Notes: generated by a model not told the origin, from the letters alone. Counted from the stretch's first letter, positions 52,875 to 61,848 are shown. The stretch: 64,000 nt of DNA from Armatimonadota bacterium (GCA_041690135.1 JAWLHY010000001.1:1376001-1440000), one strand, 5' to 3'. Program-made: numbers and translations.

Positions 52875-54065
52875 ATGCCGTCCGCAGCCTCCCATCCAGA
52901 CCTGCGCCAAAATCATGCATGCCCGCGTTCTATCCGAACGCCGGCCCGGTTGCTCGGGCCGGTGGCGGTGCTGCTCGCTATGGCCTTGCCTGGGGCGGCC
53001 GACCCGATCCCCTCTTACGTCAAGCTCCCCGAAGACGTGCGCGCGGAGGTACGGGCCCTGGATCAGGCTCGGGGACGAGCGACAGGGCCGCTCACCGCAG
53101 CCCAACTCCGGCGCTTCGCGGGGTCACTGCCTCGGCCCCCCACGCAAAAGGGACAACTCTACTTCGCGGTCGCCTCCGCGGACCTGTCGCTCTTTGACGC
53201 GTTGGCGGGCGGTTCCCGATCCGAGGGCGCGCAAGACCCGGAGACCGGGATGACAGCCCTGATGATCGCGGCGGAGATCGGCCAGTGGGACGCGGCCACC
53301 CGGCTGGTGCGGCTCGTGCGGGGCGACGACGGCGAGTTTGTGTTCCGCTGTGAATACGGGGACGCCTACTACAAGCACCGTTGCGATCGATACGGCTACA
53401 CCGCGCTGATGCACGCGGCTTCCGCCGGGCAGACGGAAATCGTCAACTATCTCCTCAACGCCGGGGCGCCGCCGGACAAGCGGTGCTACGTGGCCCGCTT
53501 CGATGCCCTGCAACTCGCGCAGAATAACCGGCACGATCTCGCCGCGGCCGCCCTCCAGCGCCGGTTGTCCGAACAGGAGGCGCGGCGCCGTGAGGAGCAG
53601 CGCCTTCAGGAAGAGCAGGACCACCAGTTTCTCCATTCCGGCTGGTGGCGTGACATGCTGATGAACAATGGAGACCTGTTCGCCTCCCTGCTGGTGACGG
53701 CGCTCCTCTCGCTGGGCGGTTTCCTGTTCGTGCACGTCACGGTCCGGGGGATGATCGGTCGCGACCGCCGTGAATTATTGGTGGGGCTGCTCACGCGCGC
53801 GTTCGTCGAAGAGGCCGAGCGCGATCCTGGAGCCACGCGCTGGACCTATACCGAGGTCGAGCGCCTGGTGCGCACTTTTGTGGGCGAGCTGCGGTGGCGT
53901 CGTGACTTCATGACGCGCTGGCACCCCGCCCACTGGCCCCCCTCGTTCGATCAGGTGGTTGGAATTGCCCGGGACTATCAGTCGGAAACCGCGGAGTATG
54001 TGTGGAAGACCCTCCGCCCCACCGGTGCGGTTTCGGCGGGCTCCCCTTCAGGGAGTTCCAAATGA
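52875..54065 (+). CDS. Ankyrin-repeat protein with signal-like segment, coiled coil, single TM and C-terminal domain
   Basis: GMTALMIAA..G and GYTALMHAASAGQ.EIV.YLL.AGA; TM LFASLLVTALLSLGGFLFVHVTV; start uncertain. Confidence 0.8.
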   Translation: MPSAASHPDLRQNHACPRSIRTPARLLGPVAVLLAMALPGAADPIPSYVKLPEDVRAEVRALDQARGRATGPLTAAQLRRFAGSLPRPPTQKGQLYFAVASADLSLFDALAGGSRSEGAQDPETGMTALMIAAEIGQWDAATRLVRLVRGDDGEFVFRCEYGDAYYKHRCDRYGYTALMHAASAGQTEIVNYLLNAGAPPDKRCYVARFDALQLAQNNRHDLAAAALQRRLSEQEARRREEQRLQEEQDHQFLHSGWWRDMLMNNGDLFASLLVTALLSLGGFLFVHVTVRGMIGRDRRELLVGLLTRAFVEEAERDPGATRWTYTEVERLVRTFVGELRWRRDFMTRWHPAHWPPSFDQVVGIARDYQSETAEYVWKTLRPTGAVSAGSPSGSSK

Positions 54066-57007
54066 CCCTGGAGGGTACGAGCACGGGGGGAGACGCACTT
54101 TATGTGCGTGGCTGGTGGGGTCGGACCGTCGAGTACCTTGCCGGGCTGTTCGGCGCTTCCGGGGAAACGGAAGCTTCCCCAGCAGAGGGCGCCGCCGTGG
54201 CGGGAATCGTCCCGGCTGGCACGGCGAAATCGCCGCCTCTCGTGGCCAGCCTCGCCTGGGAACGTGAAGGCCCGCCTCTCTTCGGGCACGATTGGCCCCC
54301 CACCCCCGCCACTTACCAGGCGCCTCAAGGCGAGCGTGCCGCCGCGGCCACCCTCCTCCGGCAGGTCCTGGCGGATGCGACCCAGCCGGTGGTGTGCCTC
54401 CATGGACTTACGGGCATCGGCAAGTCCACGCTGGTCGTGGAAACACTGGAAGACGGTGAGCAGCTCTTCGGCCAGGAGTTCTGCGTTTGGATCAACTGCG
54501 AGCAATACCGCGGCCGGGAGCGGAAGGCGCTGGGAACATTCGTCAGCCAGTACCTGCTGGAGGCGATGCCGGGTCTTCAGCCTGCCGGTAGGACCGGAGC
54601 AGAAGCCGCCGATGTTCTTCCGCTGGAAACGGCGGCCCGCTGTCCCGCCCTGCTGGTGATGGACAACTTCGAGGCGATGCTCGATGCGCAGGACTGTTAC
54701 CAGGGCGACCCCTGGGTCTGGGACCTCCTGCGCCTGCGCACCCGCCAGGCCGCCCGGCGTGGGGGCCCGGGTCTCAAGGTTCTCCTCATCAGTTGGCGCG
54801 CGCCGCGGGACATGGATGCGCAGGGCAACGCGGTGGTGCGTCCCCTGGCGCTGGATGAGGGCCTGAGTGACGCGCAAATGCACGACCTCCTGGATGCGGT
54901 CTGGGCGGGCACGATCCAGGGTAAAGCATTGCGGCGGGCCAGCGGCGAGCAGAAGGCGGAGCTGGTACGCCTCTGTGGCGGCAACCCGGCGGCGCTCAAT
55001 GCAGCTTTGACGGCGCTCCGGTTGCAGGAGGGGATCCGCTCGCTGGAAGATCTGCTGGCGCTACCTTTTCTTCAACTCGTAACAGATAACCAGGGACGGG
55101 AGATCAACCTGCGCCGGTACGTCCGCGAGGTCATGCGCCAGGCACGCCAGAACCCGGAGCGGAGGGCCGTTTTGTACGCCCTGGCCCTCCTGCGTCTCCC
55201 TACCCCCGCGGATGATGCCGAGGACGGTGTGCCGAGCCTGGCCAACCGGGTTCACGCACTGGATGGTCGTGTGGAAGCGGCTGCCGATGATGGACCGGCG
55301 GTAGGCGAAGGGGGAGAGCGCGAGCCGGTTACGGGTGAGAATCGAAAGCGAAGAGCGTTGACGCCTCGCCAGGTGAGACAGCACCTGGAGCGCCTGGCGC
55401 CCGGTTTCGTGCGGGTTCACGACAGCGAGGGAGCGGGGCCGATCACCTACAGCCTGAGTCCCCTTTTCGCCAGTGCCGTCTACGAAGAGCTGCGCGAGGA
55501 ATCGGCTCCCGTCCTGGCGCGGCTGATGGAGGCCACGGCCCAGCACTATCAATCGCTGCTGGAAAACCTTCCCGACGCGCTGCGGCCTGAAGAAACGGGC
55601 GAGCCCGCCGGACCCTCGTCGATGGGCGCGCGCTATCGCCTGGAGACACCCGAATACCGCAAGTACATCGCGGAGTGGCTCCGGGCCATGTTGGGCAATC
55701 CCGAACGGGACCCACAGGAGAACCGCGCCAGCCTCGCGGCGGTCGTGCTGAAATTGCACTGGTGGTGGGCGACGTTCGTGCCGTGGGAAGTGTTCGACCA
55801 CGTGCTATCTACCATCGAGCTCGGTCTGCGCCTGGCCGGGCATCTGCAGACCGACGCGGACTTCGGCGAAGAGCGTCGCTTGGTGGAGAAGTTGCGGGAG
55901 TTCGATGTGCACTGGCCAAAGGAAAGCCGCTGGACGGTTGACCCCGATCCGGTGGAATGTCGCCGGGCGCGGGAAGCGCTCCTGGCGGTGCGTCGTGTTC
56001 TTGACTGTGATTATCCCGTCAACGAAGAAGGTGTCTCCCGCCCCACTCTTACCGGCGATCTGCGGGCGGTGGCGGCGATCACGGATATGTATCTGGGCGA
56101 TCTGTGGCTGTTCGAGTTTCGGTTCGGATCTCGGCAGGCAGCCGTGGTGGACCAGGCGGCCCTCTGGATGCAGAGTGCCCGCCGCCGTTACGCGGGGTCG
56201 GCGCACGACGCTGCCGAGAAGGTCCAGGATGAAGACCTCAGTTGGTCCGAGATCTACGTGATTGCCAGCCAGGGCTACCTGGAATGGGAGCGTGGTGACC
56301 GGCTCGCAGCGCTTCGGTTTGCGCGGGAAGGACTGGAGCGCTGCCTGGCAGCGGACCGCTCCGCGCAGGATGAGGCGGATGATGCGGATGCGGATGACGG
56401 CGGGTACGAGGAGCGGGATGCCCGGGCGAAGGTTTATGTAACGTTGGGTGAGGGCCTTCTGAAAGAAAATCCTCAGCTTGCGTTGGACTGTTTTCGGTTG
56501 GCCCACTGGGAAGCGTTCGCCTATCTGTGGGATCCGCCCACGGATCCGCCGAACGACGACTACACGCTGACGCATTACCGGATCACCTGCGAGCGATTCA
56601 TCCATGCACTGCGATGCGTATTTGCGGAAAGCGAAAGGCCCGAGATGGCGCTCGCGGTGGCACGCCAGACACGCGAGTTCTGGCTGGAATGGAGCCGCGG
56701 TGACTGCCATCCCTGCCCAGCTCCGAGGTTGGATCGGGAAGGGGAAGTGTGGGAGAATCTCCTCCGGGAGTGGTCTCCGCAAGAGCGAGGGTGGCTCACG
56801 CCGGATATCACTCCATCTGACCGCGCCCGTGCGCTGACGCAACAGTACCAGGCATGCGCGGCGGCATTATTTCCTGAACTACCGAACGCAGAGGATCGTG
56901 CGTACCGGGACGCGGCGCGGGCCTTTACCCGGACTCATTTTGCGGAACCGTTTCGGCTCCGAGATAAACTCCTGGATTACGTCCGTTGTCAGTTGGCCGA
57001 AGAATAG
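54062..57007 (+). CDS. STAND (NB-ARC-like) P-loop NTPase with helical/TPR-like C-terminus
   Basis: Walker A GLTGIGKS, Walker B LLVMDNFE, sensor KVLLISWR, GxP motif LCGGNPAAL; ATGA overlap with the ankyrin gene. Confidence 0.85.
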   Translation: MTLEGTSTGGDALYVRGWWGRTVEYLAGLFGASGETEASPAEGAAVAGIVPAGTAKSPPLVASLAWEREGPPLFGHDWPPTPATYQAPQGERAAAATLLRQVLADATQPVVCLHGLTGIGKSTLVVETLEDGEQLFGQEFCVWINCEQYRGRERKALGTFVSQYLLEAMPGLQPAGRTGAEAADVLPLETAARCPALLVMDNFEAMLDAQDCYQGDPWVWDLLRLRTRQAARRGGPGLKVLLISWRAPRDMDAQGNAVVRPLALDEGLSDAQMHDLLDAVWAGTIQGKALRRASGEQKAELVRLCGGNPAALNAALTALRLQEGIRSLEDLLALPFLQLVTDNQGREINLRRYVREVMRQARQNPERRAVLYALALLRLPTPADDAEDGVPSLANRVHALDGRVEAAADDGPAVGEGGEREPVTGENRKRRALTPRQVRQHLERLAPGFVRVHDSEGAGPITYSLSPLFASAVYEELREESAPVLARLMEATAQHYQSLLENLPDALRPEETGEPAGPSSMGARYRLETPEYRKYIAEWLRAMLGNPERDPQENRASLAAVVLKLHWWWATFVPWEVFDHVLSTIELGLRLAGHLQTDADFGEERRLVEKLREFDVHWPKESRWTVDPDPVECRRAREALLAVRRVLDCDYPVNEEGVSRPTLTGDLRAVAAITDMYLGDLWLFEFRFGSRQAAVVDQAALWMQSARRRYAGSAHDAAEKVQDEDLSWSEIYVIASQGYLEWERGDRLAALRFAREGLERCLAADRSAQDEADDADADDGGYEERDARAKVYVTLGEGLLKENPQLALDCFRLAHWEAFAYLWDPPTDPPNDDYTLTHYRITCERFIHALRCVFAESERPEMALAVARQTREFWLEWSRGDCHPCPAPRLDREGEVWENLLREWSPQERGWLTPDITPSDRARALTQQYQACAAALFPELPNAEDRAYRDAARAFTRTHFAEPFRLRDKLLDYVRCQLAEE

Positions 57008-57015
57008 GTGGGAGC

Positions 57016-57759
57016 GTGCTGGAACTTCACGAGATTGAGGGCGTCCTGGATTCGGAGCTGGTGCCGTTTGCCCGACTCATCCAAACGCTCTTCCCGCCCG
57101 AGGAGCAGGTTCTCTTCTCGGAGGTGATCGAGCTGGCGCAGGCGAAATCTCGCGGCGAAGCGAAGGAACACCACTTTCTTACAGCGCGGGATCCCGAGAG
57201 TCGTGAAACAGTCGCCATGGCCTGGTACTGGTTGACTTCCCCTGATCCGGGATCGGATCGGGGTGAGGATCCCACGGATGGAAAGGAGAAGCTGTCGTCT
57301 CCCGGCGTGCCGGACCTGCGTGTGGCGTGGCTGTGGTACATTGCGGTCGATCCCCGGCACCAGTCGCAAGGATGCGGAGGGTGGCTCTACCGCGAAATCT
57401 GCCGCCGAGTCTTCCATGAGCACGGCTGCGGGTTGATGGTCCTGGAAGTCGAGCGGGTCGATGTAGCCGCCCGCCACTCGGAAGCACGGGCGGCGGACGC
57501 GAGACGTCGCCTCCGGTTTTACCAGGACCGGTGCGGAGCGCAGCGATTGGAAGGCATCGAATACATCCAGGAGACGGGTTGGCAACCCGGACTGCCGATG
57601 CACCTGCTGATCCAGTGGCCCGATCCTGCCCGCCCAGGATTATCCGCGGAAGCGTCGTTCCATCTCCTTAAGGGACTGTTCGGAGATCAACTGCGAGGCG
57701 TGGAAGGCGTCTCTCCGTGGCTGGCTGGATCAACAGCGGCTGGATCGACAGTGGAGTAG
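57016..57759 (+). CDS. GNAT family N-acetyltransferase
   Basis: FPPEE, LWYIAVDP.HQSQG.G (motif A), MVLEVE, RRLRFY; starts 8 nt after the STAND stop. Confidence 0.88.
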   Translation: MLELHEIEGVLDSELVPFARLIQTLFPPEEQVLFSEVIELAQAKSRGEAKEHHFLTARDPESRETVAMAWYWLTSPDPGSDRGEDPTDGKEKLSSPGVPDLRVAWLWYIAVDPRHQSQGCGGWLYREICRRVFHEHGCGLMVLEVERVDVAARHSEARAADARRRLRFYQDRCGAQRLEGIEYIQETGWQPGLPMHLLIQWPDPARPGLSAEASFHLLKGLFGDQLRGVEGVSPWLAGSTAAGSTVE

Positions 57760-58460
57760 CTTCCGGGCGGCGGAGGCGGAGGAGCGGCGATCGGACGCGG
57801 CGGAGGCTGGTTCTTCAGCAGGTGATCTACCGTGCGAGAAACGGTGGCGAATTGCGCCGGCCCCACGTTCACGAAGCTCCGATGGACTCTATGATCCTGG
57901 ATGATCAGAACCGTGCTGTCCACCATCGGGTTCAGCGACAACCAGGGCGGCACCGAAGTTGGTTGAAGGTAAAGCAGCGGAATTCTGGTGTGACGCTCGT
58001 CTGCCACCTTCTTGATGTGGCCGACGAGTTCGGTCCCGCCCATAAAGGCGACGCATCCTTCCAGCTTTTCACCTCGCGCCTGGTAGCGGGCCACGAGCGC
58101 ATCGATGTGCGCAGCCAGCCTGGCCGCATGCTCCAGTTCCGGTTTCACGAAGGCGGCGATTACCGGTCCGGAGCGCCAGTCTCACGTGTAGCAGTGTGTT
58201 TTCCCGCGATAGGGCCCCGTAACATCCACCATGGGGCTCGGCCCGATCCCCCATCCTACCGTGGGGCCTGAACGACCGGAGAGGAAATAGGCCCACCTGG
58301 CAACCGGCCGAAAATAGCCCTGCTGACCCAGGATGCCGATCCAGGCACTTGCCGCCAGTCCCACGAGAACTCCGGCCAATCGCTTGCGCCGCATACGCTT
58401 TCTTCTTCCTGCCTTCTTGCGGGCGGAGCGGTCCCGGAAACCTTTCCGGCGCCACGGCAT
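57687..58460 (-). CDS. Putative membrane-anchored thioredoxin-like selenoprotein (CxxU), 257 aa, Sec at codon 93 (TGA 58182-58184)
   Basis: Track ORFs 58182-58460 and 57687-58148 share a frame and are separated only by TGA: DVTGPYRGKTHCYT-U-DWRSGPVIAAFVKP; AAGGAGG before ATG 58460; hairpin directly 3' of the TGA. Confidence 0.78.
58130..58174 (-). promoter_or_regulatory. Candidate bacterial SECIS element
   Basis: GCUCCGG-A-CCGGU-AA-UCGC[CGCCUUC]GUGA-AA-ACCGG-AA-CUGGAGC; stem starts 7 nt after UGA, apical loop 26 nt after UGA with G at loop position 2. Confidence 0.62.
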
Positions 58461-58765
58461 TCGGCCTCCTTAGTCAGGCACTTAGACGATGTGCCTAGGG
58501 TGTCGTTAATCCGCTCTCTCCTCCAGCCGTTGGTCGCATGCGGCTTTTGGGCTCCGCCCGGCTGGAAGCGCGGGCGCACCACGATGCCGTGCCGCCCGCC
58601 GGCTAGTCACCCCTTCGGACCTACTGGGGGAAGAGATTCGGTCACAGGCCCTCATCGGTCAGGTCCGGGTGCTCGCGGGTCCGTTGAAAACGTAGAACAA
58701 GAGGGGCGCTTCCGGTCGGATAACGGCGGTCCCGATGGTGTGCGGATCGAATAACAGGTGGGCGT

Positions 58766-59482
58766 GTGGTGCAGGCAGGGAACACAGGGGCGGAAGTATC
58801 GCCCATCATCGAAGTGCGCGATCTGAAGGTGAAGCTCGCCCACGGCACCGCAGCCTCCTGGGTCCTGGATATCCCCCACTGGAATGTGCATCCCGGCGAG
58901 CAGGCGGCTCTATTTGGCCGGTCGGGTTGCGGGAAGTCGACTCTCCTCCACGTGCTCTCCGGGGTTCTGATGCCCACCTCCGGCAGCGTCCGGGTCTGCG
59001 GCACGGACCTGACCACGCTCGACGAGGCGAAACGGGATGCTTTTCGCGCGCACAAGATCGGCTATGTCTTCCAGAACCTGAACCTGCTCCCCGGTTACAC
59101 GGCTCTGGAGAACGTGCTCCTGGGTGCGTCCTTCTCCGGTCGCGTGGATCGGGCGAAGGCGGTAAGCCTGCTCAAAGCGATGGATCTTGCCGATCGCCTG
59201 AATCAGCCGCCGAACGCGCTTTCCCTGGGAGAACAACAGCGGGTGGCCGTCGCCCGCGCCCTGGTCAAGGAGCCGGAACTGGTGCTGGCGGACGAGCCGA
59301 CCGCATCGCTCGACCCCCGGAACTCCGCGCGGGTGATCGACCTGTTGCAGGCTGCATGCCGTGGCTGCGGCAGTACCCTGGTGCTGGTGACCCACGAACC
59401 GGAGGTGCTGACGCGTTTCGAGCGACAAGTGCCGTTCCGGGATCTGAACCGTCCGGGCGAAGAAGTGGAGCGCCGGCGGTGA
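58766..59482 (+). CDS. ABC transporter ATP-binding protein (LolD/MacB type)
   Basis: GRSGCGKS, IGYVFQ, LSLGEQQRVAVARA, LADEPT, VTH. Confidence 0.93.
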   Translation: MVQAGNTGAEVSPIIEVRDLKVKLAHGTAASWVLDIPHWNVHPGEQAALFGRSGCGKSTLLHVLSGVLMPTSGSVRVCGTDLTTLDEAKRDAFRAHKIGYVFQNLNLLPGYTALENVLLGASFSGRVDRAKAVSLLKAMDLADRLNQPPNALSLGEQQRVAVARALVKEPELVLADEPTASLDPRNSARVIDLLQAACRGCGSTLVLVTHEPEVLTRFERQVPFRDLNRPGEEVERRR

Positions 59483-60723
59483 GTTTCTTGCAGATCCTGC
59501 TGCGCAGTCTCCGGCGGCATCGCCTCTCCGGCGCGCTCGCCCTGCTCAGCACCGCGCTCGGGGTGGCCCTGATTGTGGCGGTCGTCTCCTTCCGCGAACA
59601 GTCGCACCGGCAGTTCGAAACGGAGGGCATGGGCGTCGACGCGATCCTTGCCCCCCGGGGATCGGCGCTGCAGGTGGTGCTCAACAGCCTCTACCACCTG
59701 GATGAAATGCCGGGAACGCTTCCGTGGCGCGAGTACGAGCGCGTCCGGCAGGACGAGTTGGTGGTGGAAGCCTTCCCTTTTGCCACCGGGCACTCCTATT
59801 CCGGATTCCGTGTGAACGCGGTCGAGCCGCGGTTTTTTGCCCGGTTCGAGCACCGTCCCGGGCGGGGCCTTTCGTTCGCGCCCGAAGACGGCGGGCAAGG
59901 CCGTCCGTTCGACGCACGGGGAGAGGCGGTAGCCGGCTGGGCCGCGGCGCGGACGCTAGGTCTGACCGTGGGCCAGACCTTCCATCCCGTGCACGGGGTC
60001 CGCGCGGGAGATCCGCCCCATGCGGAGGACGCGCTGCGCATCGTCGGCATTATGGCGCCCACCGGCACCCCGCACGACCGGGTCCTGTATATCCCGCTGG
60101 CGTCGTTCTACACTCTGGGCGGACACGGTGAGACGGTGGCGCGTATGGCGGATCATCCGGGTGAGCGGGAGATCAGCGGCGTCTACTTGCGCCTTCGGCA
60201 CATCCGGGGCGGCGCCCTACACCCAGGAATCCAGCAGTTAAAATATGAGGTGAACCGCCGCCCCGCGGTCCAACTGGTGGTGCCGAACGAGGTCCTGCCC
60301 CAACTGCTGGATATCATTGGTTGGGCTGACCGGGTCCTCTTCCTGCTGGGAACACTGGTAATTGGACTGGGCGGAGCGTTTCTGTTCGTGGTACTGGTGA
60401 CCGCGCTACGGGAACAACGCCGCGACCTGGCGCTGCTGCGGATGCTCGGAGCGGGTCGAAAAACGGTGTTCGGATTGATCCTGGCCCAGGCTCTACTCCT
60501 CAGCCTGGGCAGCGCTATACTGGGCCTTGCGGCGGGGCATGCCGTGATAGCTTGGGGTAGCCAGGCGGTGGCCCAGGAAACCGGGCTGCGGTTTTCGGAG
60601 GGGTTCCTTTCGACAGCCGATGTCTGGACTATTCCGGCGATGCTGGTGCTGGGCGCGGTGGCCGGTTTGTTTCCGGCAGTCCAGGCCTACCGGATGGACG
60701 TACTAGAAGGGCTGCGAGCATAG
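59479..60723 (+). CDS. ABC transporter permease (MacB/FtsX type)
   Basis: GS.LQ.VL.SLYH, His-rich HPVHG...H, GTPHDR, RDLALLR.LGA; GTGA overlap. Confidence 0.88.
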   Translation: MSFLQILLRSLRRHRLSGALALLSTALGVALIVAVVSFREQSHRQFETEGMGVDAILAPRGSALQVVLNSLYHLDEMPGTLPWREYERVRQDELVVEAFPFATGHSYSGFRVNAVEPRFFARFEHRPGRGLSFAPEDGGQGRPFDARGEAVAGWAAARTLGLTVGQTFHPVHGVRAGDPPHAEDALRIVGIMAPTGTPHDRVLYIPLASFYTLGGHGETVARMADHPGEREISGVYLRLRHIRGGALHPGIQQLKYEVNRRPAVQLVVPNEVLPQLLDIIGWADRVLFLLGTLVIGLGGAFLFVVLVTALREQRRDLALLRMLGAGRKTVFGLILAQALLLSLGSAILGLAAGHAVIAWGSQAVAQETGLRFSEGFLSTADVWTIPAMLVLGAVAGLFPAVQAYRMDVLEGLRA

Positions 60724-60729
60724 GGCGTT

Positions 60730-61848
60730 ATGTTGTACATTCGCAATCGCCGCTGGTTGAGTGTGGGGTTGGTGCTTTGTCTCGCACTGGTAGCAGCCAA
60801 CCGGGCGGAGGCTTTCCTGCGCGGCCGAGCCGCCCGGGAGAGCCGGGCGCGGGCGATCGGTCGCAGCGTGCGCCTGGAAACAAACTCGCAGGGACATAAC
60901 TCCATCGGCATCGATGAAGCGGCCCTGGCACAGGCGGAAGCGGAGCGTTTTCTCTATTTCGGCACCCTGGCGCAGTGGGAGTACTCCCGGGAATTACCCA
61001 TTGAGTGCCCGCCCGCGGTGAAGCAGCTCAGCGGCCGGCGGTTCACCAGCGTCGGGTTCATGTATCCGCTGGAAGCCGGGGAGAAGATCCGCACCTTCTG
61101 CCTGCTCCGCAGTACGCAAACCTGCTGCTACGGGCCCCGGCCCCAGTACAACCAGTACCTGCTCGTGGAGACCCCCACTCCCGTCTCCTTCGAGCGGTTC
61201 GCCCCGGTGGCCGTTTCCGGCAAGCTCGTGGTGGAGGCAAACCCGGACGAGGGCTACATTTACCGGATGGAGGCGGACGCAGTCTGGAGCGCGGAAGGCG
61301 AGATCCCGGAAGTCGATCCCGTTTCGGCCGCTGCCCGGGCACGGCTGCCGCTGTTCAATTTCGCACCACTGGAAACAATGGGTGCTTCCGTTGGTAAGAC
61401 TTCGAAGGCTCCCGCGGAACTCCAGGCGCTCGACGGTCGCAAAGTGGTTATTTCCGGCTTCTGCGTGGACCGCACCCCAGGCGGTCAGCCGCAGATCACC
61501 GTGGGAAAGCGGTGGTGGGATGGCGTAAGCCAGGGCGAGCCCCCTACCATCCACAATGCGGTCATTGTAGAGCCGGCGGATGCGGACCAAGTCCCCCCCG
61601 TCTGGCAGCCGGAGCAGACGTTCACCGGAACCCTGCACATTACCGAGGACCCGGACCGCTGGCGTGATGAGGGCATCCTCCAGATCCGCGAAGCGGTGCT
61701 GGGCGTGCCGGGTGTGACCCCGCCCGCGGGAGCGCGGCGCGGGCGGCCCCGGATACCGTGGCCGGGAGAGGCGTTAGCGCTGTGCCTGGCGGTCCTGCCT
61801 GCGCTCGGAATACACCGTAAGTCCTCGCCGGAAGGGATCCATCCATGA
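60730..61848 (+). CDS. DUF3299-like protein with two related domains
   Basis: L.G......GFMYPL...F.L....TCCYG..P..NQ; second unit LDGRKV.ISGF...PP...N. Confidence 0.75.
   Translation: MLYIRNRRWLSVGLVLCLALVAANRAEAFLRGRAARESRARAIGRSVRLETNSQGHNSIGIDEAALAQAEAERFLYFGTLAQWEYSRELPIECPPAVKQLSGRRFTSVGFMYPLEAGEKIRTFCLLRSTQTCCYGPRPQYNQYLLVETPTPVSFERFAPVAVSGKLVVEANPDEGYIYRMEADAVWSAEGEIPEVDPVSAAARARLPLFNFAPLETMGASVGKTSKAPAELQALDGRKVVISGFCVDRTPGGQPQITVGKRWWDGVSQGEPPTIHNAVIVEPADADQVPPVWQPEQTFTGTLHITEDPDRWRDEGILQIREAVLGVPGVTPPAGARRGRPRIPWPGEALALCLAVLPALGIHRKSSPEGIHP

Follow-up and report, generated by a model that had tools for sequence, protein, structure and literature searches.

A putative selenoprotein family with a TlpA-type thioredoxin fold and a Cys-x-x-Cys/Sec pair away from the classical active site

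Two open reading frames (ORFs) that lie in one frame and are parted by a single TGA raise the question of whether they are two genes, one broken gene, or one gene whose UGA is read as selenocysteine (Sec). We examined such a locus on the minus strand of a 64,000-nt stretch from an Armatimonadota bacterium (GCA_041690135.1, JAWLHY010000001.1:1376001-1440000; hereafter the window, to whose coordinates positions refer), for which a sequence-only reading had proposed a hidden selenoprotein with a CxxU motif. From the ATG start codon (58460-58458) a single frame runs to a TGA stop (57689-57687), and its sole interruption is the TGA at 58184-58182, codon 93, as that reading had described. The complete gene (57687..58460, minus strand) comprises 257 codons plus the stop, with Sec at codon 93, and the match of its translation (TGA=U) to the family hidden Markov model (HMM) passes through the TGA. 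The read-through product of 257 aa contains ...DVTGPYRGKTH-C-Y-T-U-DWRSGPVIAAFVKPE..., the residues N-terminal to C-Y-T-U being also given as VDVTGPYRGKTH. Taking all the evidence below together, we hold with good confidence that the locus is one real gene for a selenoprotein.

Translation signals are found at the beginning of this frame. A Shine-Dalgarno-like AAGGAGG (58465..58471, minus strand) precedes the ATG with a 4-nt spacer. A very basic stretch (residues 1-27) is followed by a hydrophobic segment (residues 28-45; 58326..58379, minus strand), which would be a signal anchor or signal peptide; residues 14-44 are helical in the AlphaFold2 model. Mechanical ORF calling divides the gene into 58182..58460 (92 aa) and 57687..58148 (153 aa, with a GTG start), and inspection of the sequence found no Shine-Dalgarno upstream of GTG 58148. 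The sequence-only reading had described the two parts in these same terms and had anticipated that standard pipelines would split the gene. Indeed, the entry P0005 in the public protein database corresponds to the 92-aa N-terminal piece alone (100% identity, residues 1-92), and its deposition as a separate protein shows that annotation pipelines do split this gene. Because the N-termini of relatives look like ordinary signal peptides, and because here a basic stretch is accompanied by a hydrophobic helix, the protein is likely exported, in a signal-anchored or cleaved form; its N-terminus could be a membrane anchor or, equally, a cleaved signal peptide.

The residues found at codon 93 in relatives bear most directly on the nature of the TGA. 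A word-index protein search retrieved a sole relative, P0004, which is the closest full-length one (46% identity to the query) and reads GKTHCYTCDW, i.e., CYTC at the site. An exhaustive search of representative proteins retrieved 92 proteins at E <=1e-3, of which 91 were aligned with the query (92 rows in all; P0062, a 3356-aa repeat protein, was left out). Column 93 is covered by 77 rows and is occupied by Cys in 70 of them, including the C that stands in for the query's own residue, that is, in 69 of the 76 other covering rows. In addition, four database proteins terminate exactly at ...CYT, one of which is the 92-aa piece from the window itself, and several more start a few residues past the site. 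Related genomes of the same phylum contain 12 distinct genes with TGA at this codon (in the contexts CYV*, CYR*, CIV*, CYI*, CPV* and the CYT* of this gene), and others have TGC or TGT. One of these 12 genes is a second copy in the host genome (C-Y-V-TGA; G000:C1:180305-180871, L056/L039, outside the window), which also has two further copies of the family of the Cys type (C1:31960-32562 and C2:264619-264810). Thus, the alignment of homologs across the stop with Cys, and the conservation of TGA among relatives, were both borne out as the sequence-only reading had expected.

A scan of 185,579 species genomes with the DNA pattern T-G-P-x-x-G-K-x-x-C-Y-x-TGA yielded 102 loci, 97 of which contain a family gene with TGA at the codon in question, and in the verified TGA genes as well as in these 97 loci the frame and the family HMM match run on to the end of the domain. 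The five other loci (two from Brocadia and one each from Tatumella, Lentibacillus and Lutibacter) have no family HMM match and were rejected, one translated Brocadia frame being ridden with stops; a rough estimate gives about nine chance matches to the pattern, vs. the five seen. Record titles for 75 of the 97 loci, counted by hand, indicate 67 from Planctomycetota or a lineage thereof, two from Armatimonadota, one from Acidobacteriota, one from an uncultured Clostridia metagenome-assembled genome and four from a 'bacterium'. The family is also widespread among 401 sampled genomes of the same phylum, with a match in 146. Searches of genome contigs and metagenome contigs with the query alone, or with a two-sequence alignment, gave pattern matches, none of which was confirmed as a relative. 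A quick FastTree phylogeny of 131 domain sequences (102 Sec and 29 Cys), a sample biased toward Sec by the TGA pattern scan, requires at least nine changes between Sec and Cys. The coincidence of TGA with Cys at codon 93 is far beyond chance.

The host genome (9.1 Mb in 25 contigs) contains the machinery for Sec insertion that the sequence-only reading had proposed to look for. Genes selA (567 bits), selB (384 bits) and selD (370 bits, with one in-frame TGA of its own), as well as tRNA-Sec (67 bits; anticodon tca by ARAGORN), all exceed the curated cut-offs. The tRNA-Sec gene directly adjoins selA and selD, the three lying side by side at G000:C1:1149453-1152359 (outside the window) and followed by a tRNA-Ala, and selB is on another contig (C8:51343-53220). 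Against a base rate of 212 selA-positive genomes among the 401 sampled, selA is present in all nine other genomes with a verified TGA form; conversely, the five selA-negative genomes with verified loci (G015, G021, G034, G055 and G059) all carry Cys forms. Since the genomes compared are interrelated, this co-occurrence of TGA form and selA is supportive and does not amount to a formal test. In two of these selA-negative genomes, tandem copies of the family in the Cys form (CVTC/CLTC) occur, two to three side by side (L033, G059:C127, and L035, G034:C104), and selA was not found there.

The RNA downstream of UGA-93 folds into a hairpin resembling a selenocysteine insertion sequence (SECIS). In the centroid fold, an interrupted stem of 7+5+4 = 16 bp (58130..58174, minus strand) begins 7 nt 3' of the UGA and is closed by a 7-nt loop, CGCCUUC (58155-58149), with a G at position 2 and located 26 nt from the UGA, in agreement with the geometry originally claimed. 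The minimum free energy (MFE) of the 81-nt stretch is -34.5 kcal/mol (z -2.43; equalled by 4 of 200 dinucleotide shuffles). The model for bacterial SECIS elements sets a loop size of 3-9 nt, a G as the first or second loop nucleotide, a spacing of 16-37 nt and an MFE <= -7.5 kcal/mol (PMC13188914, Fig. 2 legend), and the values for the hairpin after UGA-93 lie within all four constraints, as the sequence-only reading had held of the geometry. The comparison among relatives used a stretch of 63 nt counted from the UGA or Cys codon of each gene. The downstream RNA of Sec forms folds better than that of Cys forms when each sequence is set against dinucleotide shuffles of itself (mean z -1.53, n=108, vs. 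-0.44, n=29; Mann-Whitney p ~1e-6), and 93 of 102 distinct Sec sequences, vs. 18 of 29 Cys forms, have a hairpin of 8 bp or more with a loop that begins 25-34 nt past the UGA, the loop positions being scattered among the Cys forms. In a subgroup of 49 sequences, the consensus hairpin (RNAalifold, ribosum scoring) is paired in 80.6% of cells vs. 27.6-46.6% with slid partners, and shows 34 double-sided changes vs. 16.5 ± 2.9 in shuffles, none of 500 of which reached 34. Together, these results indicate that a hairpin 25-34 nt past the UGA is kept in Sec forms more often than in Cys forms and that it covaries to some extent.

What kind of protein is interrupted by this codon was assessed from its predicted structure. 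The AlphaFold2 model, built from a 66-row alignment, has a mean predicted local distance difference test score (pLDDT) of 82.8, with core residues 61-220 above 90, and residues 66-217 (57810..58265, minus strand) form a TlpA/ResA/PrxQ-like thioredoxin-fold domain that spans the UGA. Foldseek matched the model to TlpA/DsbE/ResA proteins and to PrxQ/Bcp peroxiredoxins with E down to 5e-8, and VIA-align gave a Z of 17.7 with 3gl3_B (root mean square deviation 2.1 over 140/141 residues), 16.0 with ResA and 16.3 with Bcp4. A profile comparison with hhalign against five TlpA/Prx proteins of the host genome reached a probability of 95% (E 3.7e-8); against a single PrxQ sequence the probability was 20.7%, with the register unchanged. 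At the sequence level, a scan of the protein against Pfam and NCBIfam had no match at E up to 1, in line with the sequence-only reading, which had recognized no named selenoprotein family; among 66 family members scanned, two match AhpC-TSA (PF00578) and one ResA, all weakly; and a sequence-profile search of the PDB gave weak matches, e.g., to StoA (E 0.08). Using P0004, the ESM Atlas returned clusters of 'hypothetical protein', mostly from Planctomycetota, the nearest Pfam-bearing cluster being YtfJ_HI0045 (PF09695; score 0.88, below the tool's trust level), which we take as a lead only, there being no match to this family in any Pfam scan.

The earlier proposal of a thioredoxin-fold CxxU protein stands for the fold, but the CxxU is not at the classical thioredoxin active site and lies in a stretch peculiar to the family. 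The classical F-A-T-W-C-G-P-C aligns to residues 107-111 (PELEH), where helix 110-128 begins, with no Cys and with a sequence that is unconserved in the family; likewise, the position of the cis-Pro aligns to Asp181, also unconserved, and the alignment shows no Cys at the classical peroxiredoxin position of the peroxidatic motif PxxxTxxC. The nearly invariant residues of the family are G82, G86, C90, P99, F104 and T183. The conserved CxxC/CxxU pair, C90-Y-T-U93 (58182..58193, minus strand; Sec codon UGA at 58182..58184, aligned with Cys or TGA in relatives), opens a short helix in the model (residues 91-94), ahead of strand β3 (residues 100-105). As the classical columns are unconserved and the invariant residues surround C-Y-x-C/U, the conserved centre has shifted; the geometry known for this fold would place the new site at the far end of strand β3 from the classical one.

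Several observations weigh against the interpretation of the locus as a gene for a redox-active selenoprotein. Some members of the family function without the second Cys, as indicated by the 7 of the 76 other covering rows that have E, A, I, R or T at column 93. By itself, the hairpin is just moderately better than shuffles, 4 of 200 of which are as stable, and, because relatives are not independent, the statistics on folding and hairpins of Sec and Cys forms overstate the case. RNAalifold found no single consensus structure for the 102 Sec forms, or for the CYR*, CYV* and CYRC groups, and in the 49-sequence subgroup the count of pairs changed on both sides was not above that of shuffles (357/500). 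The rule on the loop G (position 1 or 2) is obeyed by this gene, but by the minimum-energy loops of just 15 of the 102 relatives; the BSepDB paper (PMC13326102) gives ~13% as the share of bacterial selenoprotein genes without a canonical SECIS. The neighbourhoods of the 97 loci give no functional hint, no neighbour being general. Lastly, selenium incorporation and expression are predictions from the sequence here, and a redox role is suggested by the motif and the fold, with the pair sitting off the classical site.

Would another explanation account for the TGA? If it were a nonsense mutation or an assembly error, translation would end after 92 residues, and it is true that TGA is a normal stop in the host genome, being even the terminator of this gene. 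This is nevertheless very improbable, given that TGA occurs at the same codon in 12 verified genes and 97 more loci, with the frame and the HMM match continuing, that three database proteins from other sources also end at ...CYT, and that the host has the full Sec machinery and the RNA a fitting hairpin. Still more improbable is a pair of genes, one for a membrane peptide of 92 aa and the other, starting at GTG 58148, for a protein of 153 aa, although this is what mechanical ORF calling and the public database both give: the domain of residues 66-217 spans the TGA, so that neither piece by itself would hold the whole fold, the Cys-form relatives are single proteins, and GTG 58148 lacks a ribosome-binding site. 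Even added together, the readings as a pseudogene, a sequencing error or two genes account for a very small share of the probability, and from sequence and computation we consider it highly probable that this is a real selenoprotein.

A more serious alternative concerns what the pair does. C90 and U93 could bind a metal or metalloid (e.g., Cu, Zn, Hg or As), the protein being then an extracytoplasmic module for metal handling or sensing, possibly a dimer pairing two CxxU loops. The pair is in a loop and short helix away from the classical redox site, His89 directly precedes the motif in the closest subgroup, and CxxU and related motifs are listed for metal-binding selenoproteins in the table of PMC13188914. 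Conversely, His89 is not conserved across the family, each chain would provide two thiol/selenol ligands and no more, no metal transporter or chaperone is among the conserved neighbours of the 97 loci, and a CxxC at the start of a helix is the classical redox geometry too. We therefore regard metal binding as unlikely, though well ahead of the readings that dispense with Sec, and slightly favour a redox function for the C90/U93 pair, as judged from the motif and its structural setting.

In the reading that we favour, SelB with Sec-tRNA(Sec) would bind the hairpin starting 7 nt past UGA-93 and Sec would be inserted, giving the 257-residue protein, and the basic N-terminus and hydrophobic helix would route the remainder of the protein across the cytoplasmic membrane. 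The exported part would adopt a thioredoxin fold of the TlpA/ResA/PrxQ type in which the classical CxxC (after β3) and the cis-Pro loop have decayed, and C90 and U93 would most likely cycle between selenol/thiol and a reversible selenenylsulfide. Acting outside the cytoplasm, the protein would then be a thiol-disulfide or peroxide oxidoreductase, with disulfides or peroxides reduced by the pair. Of these elements, the structure of the gene, the pairing of Cys with Sec, the hairpin, the Sec machinery, the fold and the loss of the classical site are seen in the data, and export, redox cycling and the substrate are proposals.

Comparison with known proteins places this one close to, but apart from, the TlpA/ResA/CcmG (DsbE) and PrxQ/Bcp proteins (PF08534 and PF00578). 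It shares with them the fold, including the N-terminal beta-hairpin and the central insertion, an N-terminal export signal and a pair of the Cys-x-x-Cys type; unlike TlpA/ResA/DsbE, it lacks a Pfam match and has PELEH in the position of W-C-x-x-C and Asp181 in that of the cis-Pro, with the conserved pair ~15 residues earlier, before β3. Likewise, the known TlpA/Prx-like selenoproteins (thiol-disulfide isomerase-like cd02966 UxxC, UGC-containing TlpA, Prx-like thiol:disulfide oxidoreductase UxxC and Redoxin UxxC) have a thioredoxin fold and Cys homologs, but Sec is the first residue of their motif (UxxC or UGC, in the table of PMC13188914) and the last one here (CxxU), at another site. The host itself has a selenoprotein of the classical type, a TlpA-like protein with W-U-G-P-C and Sec at the canonical site (G000:C6:280985-281374, L074, outside the window). 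Since 6 of the 33 Redoxin (PF08534) matches in its genome have an in-frame TGA, L074 alone having been checked, the host genome looks rich in thioredoxin-fold selenoproteins. Rdx (SelW-like, PF10262) and other CxxU selenoproteins share with the query the motif, Sec as the second residue of the pair and a thioredoxin-like fold. The Rdx motif sits after strand β1. The query differs from Rdx in its larger, TlpA-type fold, its predicted export and the position of the motif before the central strand, and has no match to PF10262.

A review from May 2026 (PMC13188914) lists 119 families of prokaryotic selenoproteins in its Table 1, with a Pfam, NCBIfam, CDD or PANTHER identifier for every family. As far as this table goes, there is no CxxU entry with a TlpA-like domain, the TlpA/Prx-like entries being UxxC, UGC or UxxS; the query matches none of its Pfam or NCBIfam identifiers, and the entries for cd02966 and cd02970 are set apart from it by their listed motifs (UxxC, UGC and UxxS). 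The BSepDB paper counts 111 families (PMC13326102). Full-text literature searching did not turn up such a family. A planctomycete genome paper from 2016 includes in its Table S9 one 'hypothetical' selenoprotein candidate with a Cys homolog in Rhodopirellula, for which the table gives no sequence to compare (PMC4807772), and which might belong to the same family. We read the gene as a member of a selenoprotein family that is new, has its redox pair in another place than usual, lacks a Pfam or NCBIfam name and is set apart from the entries of the review by Pfam and NCBIfam identifiers and, for the TlpA/Prx-like entries, by motif. The fuller proposal appears evenly balanced between right and wrong: that of a selenoprotein family not described before, frequent in Planctomycetota and represented by a few members in genomes labelled Armatimonadota or Acidobacteriota, in which a TlpA-type fold would have a second-site Cys-x-x-Cys/Sec centre before β3, would have lost the classical CxxC and cis-Pro, and would have exchanged Sec and Cys repeatedly.

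The annotation of this gene as two pieces is repeated in at least about a hundred species-level genomes, and a Sec-aware family model would mend the affected annotations and enlarge the prokaryotic selenoproteome by one family. Where Sec occurs, it is usually the catalytic residue; in this family it directs attention to a reactive centre off the classical site of the thioredoxin fold and provides an experimental handle on a probably exported planctomycete family annotated as 'hypothetical', from bacteria with large and little-understood sets of TlpA-like proteins. If the relocated centre is real, one of the most thoroughly studied folds would have a new position for catalysis or ligand binding. 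The repeated exchange of Sec and Cys, tied to the presence of selA, would also serve as a clean natural experiment on the conditions under which Sec is advantageous. The family should therefore be of relevance to specialists in selenoproteins and thiol redox and, in practical terms, for annotation.

Beyond the domain, the protein ends in a proline-rich tail (residues 218-257; 57690..57809, minus strand) that is modelled with low confidence. The final 73 nt of the selenoprotein gene, encoding part of this proline-rich end, overlap a convergent ORF for a GNAT acetyltransferase (56986-57759, plus strand), and either the latter or the 3' end of the selenoprotein gene may have been called too long. 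Small shares were found in two soil-metagenome sequencing runs, and no RNA run turned up. A 151-nt contig with five differences covers the TGA just 5-7 nt from its end, so that it does not bear on the identity of the codon.

Among the 97 loci, the commonest neighbour is a protein with a beta-propeller and an esterase domain (PF00756), encoded ~90 nt downstream on the same strand in 16 of them (e.g., L089:189-2495), and a Redoxin gene lies nearby in nine. Divergent from the selenoprotein gene, the window contains genes for an ABC ATPase, a MacB_PCD/FtsX permease and a DUF3299 protein with a CC-Y-G motif (58766-61848, plus strand). This arrangement is not among the commonest neighbours of the 97 loci and shows no sign of conservation, no direct test of its recurrence having been made. 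On the other side, an ORF of 1001 aa (54002-57007, plus strand) has weak matches to AAA_16 and NB-ARC, below the Pfam cut-offs, and may encode a STAND-type nucleoside triphosphatase.

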